Sequence record: ON470603.1
DNA: 35,056 nucleotides
Origin: Escherichia phage vB_EcoM-720R4
Direction: 5' to 3' (one strand)
This document shows, piece by piece, positions 20,705-31,528 of the stretch. The notes under the pieces were generated by a model, which worked only from the letters and a program-made list of their open reading frames with translations, was not told the origin of the DNA and ran no database searches. The translations under genes and the position numbers were made by a program. Positions within the stretch are counted from its first letter, which is position 1; each line of letters begins with the position of its first letter.

Positions 20705-21031
20705 TTACTCCTTCGAGCTACCAAATTTGTTACCGATTACTCGCATTGCAGCCCCACGAATAGCATCGACACCGATCAGCCCCACGCCACCACCAATGGC
20801 AACAGAAAGCGATTTAGGCCATCCGACATATTCAAGAGCGGATGCAAAGGTCAGCGTCAGAGCGCCACATAGCAAAATCTCGAGCGTTTTTCGCTTCCAG
20901 CCACCACCACCGCCAAAATAGGCGATGCGCAAACCAGCCATAACGATCGACATAATCACTGCACCCAGCGGTGTGTCTCCACGCCACCAGCTCTGGACCA
21001 AGTCCAGCCAGGTATTTGGGTTATGAGGCAT
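20705..21031 (-). CDS. holin (three predicted transmembrane segments)
   Basis: Hydrophobic ORF immediately upstream of the endolysin; start set at the internal ATG (MPHNPN...); the longer track ORF would start at a GTG overlapping the methyltransferase. Confidence 0.55.
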   Translation of the reverse strand: MPHNPNTWLDLVQSWWRGDTPLGAVIMSIVMAGLRIAYFGGGGGWKRKTLEILLCGALTLTFASALEYVGWPKSLSVAIGGGVGLIGVDAIRGAAMRVIGNKFGSSKE

Positions 21032-29307: not shown

Positions 29308-29402
29308 TTCTGTCTCCCGTTAAATTACGTTAAGCAGAAATGTAGGATATCCAACATACCAATGTCAAGAATCCTACATGGGCATGTGGTAGGATTGCCT
29401 AC
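29308..29402. promoter_or_regulatory. right operator/promoter region: PR-like promoter for cro (minus strand: TTGACA 29368-29363, TACATT 29344-29339), 17-bp operator TGTAGGATATCCAACAT (29341-29357) plus additional TGTAGGAT-type half-sites
   Basis: Divergent cI/cro intergenic region; near-palindromic operator with GGATATCC core; promoter hexamers read directly. Confidence 0.6.
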
Positions 29403-30056
29403 ATGATGAACATGAGTGATCGTATTCGCCAAAGGCGAAAAGAACTGAACCTGACACAACAAGCACTGGCTGATTTGACTGGTGTGAACCGTGTCACGGT
29501 TACTGGATGGGAAAAGGACGACTACCAACCAAATGGAGCCAACCTTCAAGCCCTAGCCAACGCACTTAAATGCGATCCTCTGTGGCTTGTTAGCGGAAAA
29601 GGCTCGCCTGAACCAAAGATAAATCTAAAACCTGAAATATTCGCAGTTAAAAAAGTCCCCCTCATCTCGTGGGTTCAGGCGGGTTCATGGACAATGACGG
29701 AGCCTGGTGTCAGGAAAGAAGATGCTGAAGAGTGGGTTTATACTACCGCCCTTGTATCAGAAATGGCATTTGCACTACGGGTCCGTGGTGATTCAATGAC
29801 CAATCCCCTCGGCTCACCATCGATACCAGAAGGTTCTATCGTTATCGTAGAGCCAGATATTATTGATACAGAGTGTATTAACGGAAAAATCGTTGTTGCC
29901 CATATCAATGGTGGGCAAGAAGCGACACTCAAAAAATTTGTTGAGGACTGGCCGAACAGGTATCTCGTCCCACTAAATCCTAACTATAAAACTATTGAAT
30001 GCGGTGAGAACTGCAGAATAGTTGGTCTTGTCAAACAAGTAATAATGGATTTTTGA
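29403..30056 (+). CDS. CI-like repressor (N-terminal HTH, C-terminal S24 LexA-like peptidase domain)
   Basis: 217-aa ORF with HTH (LTQQALADLTGVNRVTVTGWE) and a C-terminal domain with Ser ... Lys catalytic residues (GDSM ... TLKKF); RBS AGGA 7 nt upstream. Confidence 0.9.
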   Translation: MMNMSDRIRQRRKELNLTQQALADLTGVNRVTVTGWEKDDYQPNGANLQALANALKCDPLWLVSGKGSPEPKINLKPEIFAVKKVPLISWVQAGSWTMTEPGVRKEDAEEWVYTTALVSEMAFALRVRGDSMTNPLGSPSIPEGSIVIVEPDIIDTECINGKIVVAHINGGQEATLKKFVEDWPNRYLVPLNPNYKTIECGENCRIVGLVKQVIMDF

Positions 30057-30080
30057 CACATCTTCCTCACTATCGCAAAA

Positions 30081-30102
30081 CCGGGGTATCCCCGGTTTTT
30101 TT
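30081..30102 (+). terminator. rho-independent terminator after cI
   Basis: CCGGGG-TAT-CCCCGG stem followed by TTTTTTT, 25 nt after the cI stop. Confidence 0.7.
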
Positions 30103-30119
30103 ATGAGCCTATCTTTTTA

Positions 30120-30172
30120 TGTAGGATAACCAACATAAACTCTTGACACTCACATGTTGGATATCCTACATT
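30120..30172 (+). promoter_or_regulatory. left operator/promoter region: PL-like promoter (TTGACA 30143-30148, TACATT 30167-30172) flanked by two 17-bp operators (30120-30136 variant; 30154-30170 identical to the OR operator, inverted)
   Basis: The exact 17-mer of the right operator recurs here as its reverse complement; same -35/-10 hexamers and spacing as the PR-like promoter. Confidence 0.55.
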
Positions 30173-30289
30173 TGTTTTTAGAGTTGTGGTGAATGCGCAG
30201 GCTGATGCGCGAAAGACATTGCAGCTATTGCGGAAAAGAGCTGTTCGGCGGGGCCATTAAACGCCCGTATCTGGAGGTTAAAGAACAAA

Positions 30290-30565
30290 ATGAAAGTCCA
30301 GATTTTAAACAATAGTGGTGAAGTCGTTTGGTCATACGACATAGCCGCTCCTGTAGATCAGAGCGGCGATAGCTGGACCAATGGGAAACATCAGATTATG
30401 GCTGGAGTTGTATTCTCTTTACGCCGTGCTTTGGAACAGGCTGAAGTATTTCCATCAGACCCTGAATGGAAATGGCCTTTTTCTATTTGTCCAAATTCGG
30501 AGAGCACATTTCAGAAAATTGGTCAGAAAGTCGCACTCGAAGAGCATCAGCCAACTGTTTCCTGA
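30290..30565 (+). CDS. hypothetical protein, first ORF of the leftward (PL-like) operon
   Basis: 91-aa ORF with GGAGG RBS; acidic, not N-like; its 3' end overlaps a convergent minus-strand ORF. Confidence 0.35.
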   Translation: MKVQILNNSGEVVWSYDIAAPVDQSGDSWTNGKHQIMAGVVFSLRRALEQAEVFPSDPEWKWPFSICPNSESTFQKIGQKVALEEHQPTVS

Positions 30566-30728
30566 TTTTTTCAGGTAACTCGTCGGCATCGCAGAAACAA
30601 CAACGCTCGATCATGTTGAAAGCCGATTCGTAGAACTGTTTCTGCTGAGTGTCGCTGAGACAGGAAAAGAGCGACGTTACGATGATTTTATTAATTGCAT
30701 TATCAAGTTCTTTTTCATCAAAAGTCAT
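30483..30728 (-). CDS. hypothetical protein encoded antisense to the PL-like operon
   Basis: 81-aa ORF with strong RBS (AAAGGAAAA, 6 nt spacer); opposite orientation to all neighbouring early-left genes. Confidence 0.4.
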   Translation of the reverse strand: MTFDEKELDNAINKIIVTSLFSCLSDTQQKQFYESAFNMIERCCFCDADELPEKIRKQLADALRVRLSDQFSEMCSPNLDK

Positions 30729-31165
30729 TTGATTTTCCTTTTATGTATACGGGCTTAAAAGGATACCACCGAGCCTGAAGTGGTGAAAAGACAGGCACAT
30801 AACAGCTAAGTATTTTCAACCAGAGAGAATCCTTAGCGTTGTGGTGAATGCGGCTCAGCGCACGCGGGTTAAGGTTGAGGCTGACAGTCGACCTTCTGTG
30901 GATACCCACCCGCCTGGTGTGCAACCTTCGCCAGGCACCGGGAGGCACCCGGCACCACAACTTTATGCTGTGTGTAGTCCTCGCGGTACCAGTTTGTACA
31001 CTTGCTTCCGGCTGGTACCGCTCTTTTTACAAAACAGAGAAGAGCATCACCGGACGACGGGCTCATAACCCAATCCATCCGGGCGGCTGCCACCGCAGGT
31101 GTTCTTCTCTGTTTTGTGGAGAAACCAACCGACCTTGCAGGGTCGATATGATGAGGAGCAGCAAA

Positions 31166-31528
31166 ATGGCTAGCGAACGCAGTACTGATGTGCAGGCATT
31201 TATCGGGGAGCTGGACGGCGGCGTATTTGAAACCAAAATCGGCGCAGTTCTCAGTGAAGTCGCTTCCGGTGTGATGAACACGAAAACCAAAGGGAAGGTC
31301 TCACTCAACCTGGAAATCGAACCATTTGATGAGAACCGTGTGAAAATCAAACACAAACTCTCATATGTTCGCCCGACTAACCGCGGGAAAATTTCCGAAG
31401 AAGACACCACCGAAACGCCGATGTATGTCAATCGCGGTGGTCGCCTGACTATTCTGCAGGAAGACCAGGGACAATTACTGACTCTTGCCGGTGAACCTGA
31501 CGGAAAACTCCGCGCAGCAGGTCATTAA
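31166..31528 (+). CDS. hypothetical conserved phage protein
   Basis: Start set at ATG 31166 preceded by GAGGAG; the track ORF 30848-31528 extends upstream through a structured non-coding region and is probably not translated there. Confidence 0.5.
   Translation: MASERSTDVQAFIGELDGGVFETKIGAVLSEVASGVMNTKTKGKVSLNLEIEPFDENRVKIKHKLSYVRPTNRGKISEEDTTETPMYVNRGGRLTILQEDQGQLLTLAGEPDGKLRAAGH

Follow-up and report, generated by a model that had tools for sequence, protein, structure and literature searches.

The 35,056-nt stretch of Escherichia phage vB_EcoM-720R4 analysed here (sequence record ON470603.1; "the window" hereafter means this whole stretch) is that of an SfV-like phage, 98% identical to SfV over 30730-31170. 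On the plus strand of this region, a leader small RNA (sRNA) of the STnc100 family (30808-31030) ends in an intrinsic terminator (30983-31028), which is followed by a structured element (31024-31122), by a small GC hairpin that we call H2 (31130-31145), and by the ribosome-binding site (RBS; GAGGAG, 31153-31158) and start codon (31166) of yfdP. An earlier note, made from the sequence alone, had described the element as a long perfect hairpin in an early-operon leader. We find that it is an RNA three-way junction, widespread, well supported and oddly tRNA-like, for which a role in RNA processing is predicted.

A three-way junction instead of a large-loop hairpin

The two 15-nt arms that the note had paired, ACAAAACAGAGAAGA (31029-31043) and TCTTCTCTGTTTTGT (31103-31117), are correctly placed and perfectly complementary, and the stem they form is real, but its length was understated. 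An inverted-repeat search lengthens the arms to 25 nt (31029-31053 and 31093-31117, 84% complementary), and folding of 31024-31123 with RNAfold gives one dominant structure of -51 kcal/mol, compared with -24.9 +/- 3.2 kcal/mol for 200 dinucleotide shuffles, none of which was as stable (z = -8.25). The basal helix, P1, comprises 20 bp including two G-U pairs, five pairs beyond the original 15; its 5' strand at 31029-31048 (ACAAAACAGAGAAGAGCAUC) and its 3' strand at 31098-31117 (GGUGUUCUUCUCUGUUUUGU) are delimited by the fold, the inverted repeat and covariation. At the base of P1, the terminator U-tract at 31024-31028 can pair with a conserved GGAGA at 31118-31122 (five U-A or U-G pairs), extending the helix to 25 bp and its strands to 31024-31048 and 31098-31122. 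In most of the long-stem relatives shown, P1 is likewise followed by GGAG(A/U)A, the exceptions being L296 (GGGGAA) and L311 (CGGAGAA).

The interval previously taken for a 59-nt loop turns out to be structured, containing two further helices, P2 (31050-31082) and P3 (31083-31096), so that the whole element is a three-way junction whose linkers are a single A at 31049 and another at 31097. P2, whose 7-bp stem has one mismatch, bears at its tip the near-invariant motif ACGGGCUCAUAACCCAAUC (31057-31075), in which a 7-nt apical loop, CUCAUAA (31062-31068), is closed by GGG/CCC (31059-31071); among relatives the motif reads ACGG(G)CUCAUAACCCAAUC. P3 (GCGG CUGCCA CCGC) varies in relatives both in sequence and in length, from 10 to ~40 nt, and three of its four closing pairs change on both sides in the alignment of long-stem relatives described next. 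From the end of P1 to the RBS of yfdP the distance is 35 nt, essentially as the note had it (36 nt).

Relatives were drawn from annotated phages (ST64B, 118970_sal3, mEp460, phiNP, LLS and Eeyore), from genomes found through YfdP and limited to one per species (Mangrovibacter, Enterobacter, Atlantibacter, Leclercia, Kosakonia, Phytobacter, Superficieibacter, Scandinavium, Pseudocitrobacter and Providencia) and from IMG/VR contigs. The collected relatives all have the same junction fold. In alignment A1, of 19 diverged long-stem relatives, 92.8% of cells are paired compared with 40-57% when partners are slid, 12 of 39 pairs change on both sides, and none of 500 shuffles reaches the observed paired cells, double-change pairs or covariation score. 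Alignment A3, of 87 hits (29 distinct) of a covariance model of the core named R1, gives 85.4% paired cells compared with 31-44% for slid partners, with double changes at eight of 21 pairs (five of the seven in P2); the paired cells and the covariation score are again reached by 0/500 shuffles, and the number of double-change pairs by 75/500. Compensatory exchanges in P1 include AAGAGCA/UGCUCUU to AAGGGCA/UGCCCUU and ACACAAG/CUUUUGUGU to AUGUGAG/CUCACAU. Core pairs hold 31 G-U cells and six A-C cells, which indicates that the RNA is on the plus strand. The RNA-level structure suspected in the note is thus borne out by the compensatory changes in relatives and by this asymmetry.

These data also bear on two readings in which the RNA structure would be of no account. 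Three open reading frames run across the element: 30841-31068 (plus), 30869-31093 (minus) and the 5' extension of 30848-31528. They exist mechanically, and hypothetical proteins are annotated over the stretch in some phage records; yet the element is 103-131 nt long in relatives, with all three residue classes modulo 3 represented, a GG/GGG indel falls within its most conserved motif, substitutions follow base pairing, and yfdP relatives all begin at the ATG behind the RBS. These features argue strongly against coding, as the note had presumed, and we give translation of these frames practically no credence. The element could otherwise be inert or act as DNA, whether as a decayed phage tRNA gene, a hitch-hiking inverted repeat or a protein-binding palindrome. 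Such a reading would accommodate the traces of tRNA ancestry described below and the fact that 30983-31170 moves with yfdP as a near-identical mosaic block in many phages. It is at odds with compensatory changes found in all three helices and across genera, with a G-U asymmetry that fits only a one-strand RNA, with the presence of the core in three genomic contexts with different flanks and with the absence of a tRNA call by ARAGORN. It is already disfavoured by these observations, and we consider it very unlikely.

The leader of the early-left operon

The position of the element in an early-operon leader, proposed in the note, holds. The gene of the CI repressor (Peptidase_S24 and helix-turn-helix domains, 29403-30056) and a terminator (30080-30102) are followed by a sigma-70 promoter on the plus strand at 30119-30172, with hexamers TTGACA (30143-30148) and TACATT (30167-30172). 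Two 19-bp palindromic CI operators (ATGTAGGATATCCAACATA) overlap it at 30119-30137 and 30154-30172, and a third copy (29340-29358) overlaps the divergent cro/cI promoter at 29339-29368. The presence of the palindrome at both promoters identifies OL and OR, and hence the promoter at 30119-30172 as PL. PL and the PR-like promoter have identical hexamers, TTGACA and TACATT, separated by 18 nt.

The leader sRNA matches Rfam family RF02076 with 49.1 bits (gathering score 47) and aligns end to end (positions 1-206 of 206); the match ends at 31030, P1 starts at 31029, and the hairpin is not within the region of the STnc100 covariance model. Its intrinsic terminator, a hairpin formed by GCGGUACCAG and CUGGUACCGC followed by UCUUUUU, directly abuts P1. 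The junction is itself not an intrinsic terminator, which would be a GC-rich hairpin with a U-run directly behind it: P1 is followed by GGAGAAACC, and termination belongs to another hairpin, that at 30983-31028. At the position of H2, relatives have the sequence GGCGGUGGCAGCCGCC. The first gene past the element, yfdP, ends at 31528 and is followed by yfdQ (DUF2303) and yfdR. The relative L177 has the same organization, with cI, a terminator, a PL-like promoter, a structured leader of ~330 nt with its terminator, the junction and yfdP in this order, and with no N-like gene. This gene order identifies the sRNA and its terminator as the PL leader, and the junction as the first product of polymerases that escape the terminator.

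The spacing is regular across the 36 unique long-stem variants. All 36 have a T-run within 45 nt upstream, and in 32/36 it stops 13 nt short of the core and so touches P1. Downstream, the first RBS-preceded ATG lies 57-64 nt past the core in 31 of the 34 variants in which one was found (range 46-69 nt).

Known relatives of STnc100 are PasD and "sRNA-17" (bioRxiv 10.64898/2026.05.13.724894; PMC7719688); for "sRNA-17" of E. coli K1, the authors placed the sRNA on the opposite strand (PMC7719688). The literature that we found on STnc100, PasD and "sRNA-17" does not mention the junction, and a literal search of the literature for the conserved motif gave no match. Replacement of the leader body in E. 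coli K1 raised yfdP expression by a log2 fold change of 6.58 (~96-fold) (PMC7719688), a result that shows a dependence in cis on the leader region and yet is ambiguous as to its cause.

Several further observations concern this leader. The 5' motif of the leader sRNA (GTTGTGGTGAATGCG...) is present twice in the window, at 30183-30270 and at 30838-30852. The first copy, of the mEp460/"sRNA-17" type, lies 11 nt past the -10 hexamer of PL with ~85 nt left until the RBS of orf33, and the second is the start of the full STnc100-like RNA. Between them, convergent frames at 30290-30565 (plus) and 30483-30728 (minus) overlap by ~80 nt; they match separate PHROG families of unknown function, phrog_3195 and phrog_3311, and have no Pfam domain. 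The SfV annotation covers only the plus-strand member of the pair, orf33. This looks like an insertion of ~600 bp (orf33 and the minus-strand gene) into an ancestral PL-leader arrangement. A minus-strand terminator-like hairpin with a T-run (30765-30784), just upstream of the minus-strand gene starting at 30728, faces any antisense transcription from the leader region. In two E. coli chromosomes (L009 and L017), repeats GACGGATC / GACGGGTCAGA, 240 nt upstream of yfdP, replace leader and junction; yfdP retains its RBS only, the element having been lost in that prophage remnant.

Architectures, distribution and tRNA likeness of the family

The family was searched by a literal motif scan of viral contigs and with R1. 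Within the window R1 has a single hit, at 31042-31104 (74 bits). It has 87 hits in the first set of fetched loci (L121-L220) and 47 in the second, with none in HK022 and phi80, which are part of the second set, and none above chance level in the late region of 933W. The long-stem form, with a P1 of 20-25 bp (at least 20 bp in 36/36 variants), is placed between the terminator of the PL leader and the first early-left gene, be it yfdP or another. A second class, uncovered by a GG-variant of the motif pattern in the viral-contig scan, has a P1 of 6-7 bp, for example GGGCUC-G-CUGACGG-ACGGCUCAUAACCCAAUC-CGCCAG-GCGCUUGCGC-A-GAGCCC. These short-stem copies begin 6-8 nt past a terminator U-tract in 12 of 14 variants, and STnc100 was not found upstream of them. 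In phage vB_EcoM-689R2 such a copy stands between the gene of the Q antiterminator and the holin gene, 40 nt before the MKM dual-start motif. Among short-stem variants of the E. coli type, 11/16 have RCC after P1.

In Klebsiella phages the core lies 5 nt past a tRNA-Arg or tRNA-Asn gene and closes a tRNA array downstream of Q; every copy examined ends in P1 followed by ACCA or GCCA. Having considered tRNA genes as regular neighbours across the whole family, we found this to be true for Klebsiella phages only. The 12-nt 3' end of the GZ7 copy, GGCCACCATATC, is common to ileZ of 933W. The contigs L127 and L177 each have two copies on opposite strands ~9 kb apart, one long-stem and one short-stem, a layout in which one copy heads the early-left operon and one the late operon. 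Providencia relatives have at the yfdP position a plain hairpin of ~21-25 bp followed by GGAGUAA, the inner arms being absent, so that the long duplex and the tRNA-like core are separable modules. Given this hairpin and a stem of at least 20 bp in all long-stem variants, the long helix is selected in its own right.

By BLAST, 2,490 of the 5,426 complete E. coli genomes (46%) have the 103-nt element, some at as many as five sites, and no annotation lies beneath the best five hits listed. The element is not confined to E. coli: Salmonella, Shigella, Klebsiella, Citrobacter, Enterobacter, Kosakonia and related genera have it in phages and prophages as well. Rfam 15 has no family that matches it: nothing reaches its gathering score over the element in the window or in eight related loci, and the hits over 31029-31117 are at chance level only (Hairpin ribozyme, 14.5 bits for a gathering score of 65). 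This appears to be a previously undescribed structured-RNA family, of a phage-leader, tRNA-like processing type by predicted function. If our reading holds, a structured RNA of ~46% of complete E. coli genomes had gone unannotated, and the covariance model can now be used to annotate it and to separate it from STnc100. In the viral contig L128, 13836-13932 (minus) matches the Hfq-binding sRNA isrI of Rfam with 99.9 bits; a short-stem junction lies ~320 nt upstream of it on that strand.

The apex of P2 is tRNA-like. Positions 31058-31071 (CGGGCUCAUAACCC) are identical to 14 consecutive nucleotides of the anticodon arm of E. coli initiator tRNA-Met. The tRNA sequence was confirmed with a 49-mer that is 100% identical in 5,426/5,426 genomes, with a median of four copies annotated as tRNA-Met, which we take to be the initiator tRNA. 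In tRNA numbering, the loop CUCAUAA has U33, a CAU anticodon and the purine A37, on a stem of G-C pairs. The mimicry is incomplete: many copies have only two G-C pairs, the loop is CUCAUUC or CUCAUUA in some (with U at position 37 in some), the conserved 3' flank CAAUC is unlike tRNA, and D and T arms are absent.

Predicted processing, its alternatives and known systems

We tentatively favour an account, to which we assign somewhat less than an even chance, in which the junction is an RNA-processing cassette heading the early-left operon. The junction RNA of ~95 nt is made only when polymerases pass the terminator of the PL leader sRNA. A nuclease specific for double-stranded RNA, most probably RNase III of the host, would then be likely to cut P1, which may absorb the terminator U-tract. 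Double cleavage would separate the Hfq-type leader sRNA, together with its terminator, from the mRNA of the operon; the yfdP mRNA would then start near GGAGAA and H2, and the upper part, made up of P3 and the P2 arm with its anticodon-like CAU loop, would be released as a small tRNA-like RNA. P1 is far longer than the 6-7 bp of short-stem relatives, and it persists as a plain hairpin even in relatives without the core, which makes it a natural RNase III substrate; at 20 or 25 bp, it has the duplex length associated with this enzyme (~20 bp or more, about two helical turns). In the short-stem and Klebsiella forms, where the 6-7-bp stem is acceptor-like with RCC(A) behind it, release would instead fall to tRNA-processing enzymes (RNase P and 3' trimming), as the place of the Klebsiella copy at the end of a tRNA array suggests. 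The RNase III processing or translational control that the note had proposed remain predictions, plausible ones, and we infer rather than observe the enzymatic steps and any activity of a released RNA.

Should this account be right, the element marks the start of read-through transcription in the early-left and late (lysis) operons. It would offer a handle on how phages devoid of N separate an abundant Hfq-binding leader sRNA (STnc100/PasD), of a family studied in enterohaemorrhagic and enteropathogenic E. coli and in Salmonella, from the operon mRNA. Together with the RCCA-ended copies in arrays, the 14-nt match to the arm of the initiator tRNA also raises the possibility that phages make a truncated tRNA mimic.

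Several points weigh against the processing account. Cleavage or end-mapping data for a copy of the element were not found in the literature searched, and two enzymes for one family are less economical than a single mechanism. The pairing of the U-tract with GGAGA is simply compatible with the data, the U's being invariant in alignment A1. The K1 result is confounded by a resistance cassette that, by our own reading of the primers, is apparently co-oriented with yfdP. As for the tRNA likeness, ARAGORN calls no gene anywhere in the window and none at the site of the element in relatives, and neither the tRNA nor the C4 model of Rfam has a match in 30730-31200 at E <= 10. The window copy has P1 followed by GGAGAA in place of an acceptor-like stem with RCCA, so RNase P cannot be invoked for it. 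Lastly, the P2 apical motif is the most conserved part of the element, which a role in processing leaves unexplained; a partner of P2 is thereby implied.

Other mechanisms were considered. The junction might not be excised at all and might act in cis on the first gene, whose stability or translation it would control as a 5' stabiliser or by means of a factor (a host or phage protein or the 30S subunit) recognizing the P2 motif. We regard this as possible though doubtful. It is consistent with the constrained spacing to the ATG in long-stem variants given above, with the conserved H2 and the RBS directly behind, and with a near-invariant apical motif on a covarying stem, which is typical for a protein- or ribosome-binding site; in some short-stem copies, moreover, the first RBS-preceded ATG follows after 39-47 nt, and in L242 this ATG opens a holin frame with a dual-start MKM motif. 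It accounts less well for the variety of the downstream gene (yfdP, other early genes or holin), for the other short-stem copies, 88-142 nt from the next ATG, and for the Klebsiella copies in tRNA arrays, whose RCCA ends resemble those of a released RNA. Pairing of the loop CUCAUAA with the start codon region was also considered and rejected, as no such pairing covaries and the start context is unchanged between CUCAUAA and CUCAUUC loops. Alternatively, the junction, cut from early-left and late transcripts, could act in trans as an anticodon-arm mimic or decoy (CAU, initiator- or Ile2-like). Although unlikely in our estimation, it would, if true, constitute an RNA-based device for counter-defence or host takeover supplied both early and late in infection, with possible targets such as a VapC-type anticodon nuclease cleaving initiator tRNA, TilS, methionyl-tRNA synthetase or the 30S P site. 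A further mechanism, quite unlikely in our view, is that the junction modifies polymerase in the manner of HK022 put, rendering those polymerases that escaped the terminator resistant to later ones. In its favour are the lack of an N gene between PL and the first terminator and the presence of the element at the start of two long operons in need of processive transcription; yet the element lies past the nearest terminator rather than before it, late copies downstream of the Q antiterminator gene would be redundant, no sequence motif is common with the HK022 early region, where R1 finds nothing, and put consists of two stem-loops with no closing helix (PMC9378689). The remaining probability goes to mechanisms outside those considered.

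In how it works the element may resemble two kinds of known system, without belonging to either. Like the RNase III sites of the lambda N leader and of T7 early RNA, P1 is a long near-perfect duplex between an early promoter and the first gene. Here, however, the duplex closes a conserved, tRNA-armed three-way junction and begins at a terminator U-tract, it is a predicted substrate, and relatives with a 6-7-bp stem cannot be RNase III substrates. The C4 RNAs of P1 and P7 and the CI RNA of P4 are likewise small structured RNAs in a phage operon leader, tRNA-like, co-transcribed with the genes behind them and cut out by RNase P, and they resemble the element's relatives, but not the window copy, in having RCCA ends. 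Unlike in those RNAs, the conserved loop is identical among otherwise different phages and thus cannot encode immunity specificity. Antisense control of the C4/CI type was rejected because the complement of the 17-nt motif is not found on either strand of the window with up to three mismatches, and the only long match to the loop (12 nt, 21016-21027) is in the same sense, inside the holin mRNA, and cannot pair.

The ileZ-argN-argO array of 933W, downstream of Q, occupies the same genomic slot as the short-stem copies; the CUCAUAA loop matches ileZ as well as tRNA-Met, and the Klebsiella copies adjoin a tRNA and end in ACCA or GCCA. In contrast with these tRNAs, the element lacks D and T arms and escapes tRNA calling, and the window copy has a 25-bp duplex without CCA instead of an acceptor-like stem. 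The put RNA of HK022 is comparable in being structured, in opening the early-left operon and in belonging to a phage without N, but it differs in topology, shares no motif or R1 hit with the element and is not positioned after the terminator, so this identity was rejected. STnc100/PasD/sRNA-17 (RF02076) is immediately adjacent and on the same transcript, whereas the canonical STnc100 copy of 933W (207.7 bits) has no junction behind it; given also the short-stem copies devoid of STnc100, the junction is not its obligatory partner. This 933W copy (4278-4483 of L244) lies directly after stx2B, 1 nt away from AsxR (4485-4537, opposite strand), and its terminator region is common to the gene of this antisense sRNA.

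Other candidate identities were rejected too. The phi80 "M3 RNA", a non-tRNA substrate of RNase P, does not correspond to the short-stem form: M3 is annotated as the oop homologue, and phi80 gives no R1 hit. An RfaH ops site in H2 and a boxA in the 3' strand of P1 (UGCUCUUU) were both dismissed, their sequences being variable (compensatory change, or lost in the window). Kissing between P3 and H2 was suggested by the window P3 (GCGGCUGCCACCGC), which is the reverse complement of the H2 hairpin GCGGUGGCAGCCGC of other phages (e.g. L015 and L019), but their loops show no consistent covariation; Phytobacter prophages have one sequence, GCGGUUGCAGCCGC, for both P3 and H2. In many relatives (L019, L227, L278, L311 and L328; L015 and L270) the loop of P3 is YUCCUAAC or CUCCUAC, as in GCGG-CUUCCUAA-CCGC, and resembles the 16S anti-Shine-Dalgarno sequence; the window P3 (CUGCCA) has no such loop. 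The 12-nt holin match noted above corresponds to CUCAUAACCCAA, codons 2-5 of a minus-strand gene with its ATG at ~21026, and is the same 12 nt as in the P2 loop, with ~0.07 matches expected by chance by our own estimate. Relatives have a short-stem junction just upstream of the holin gene, where the window has none, and the match may be a coincidence or a recombination scar.

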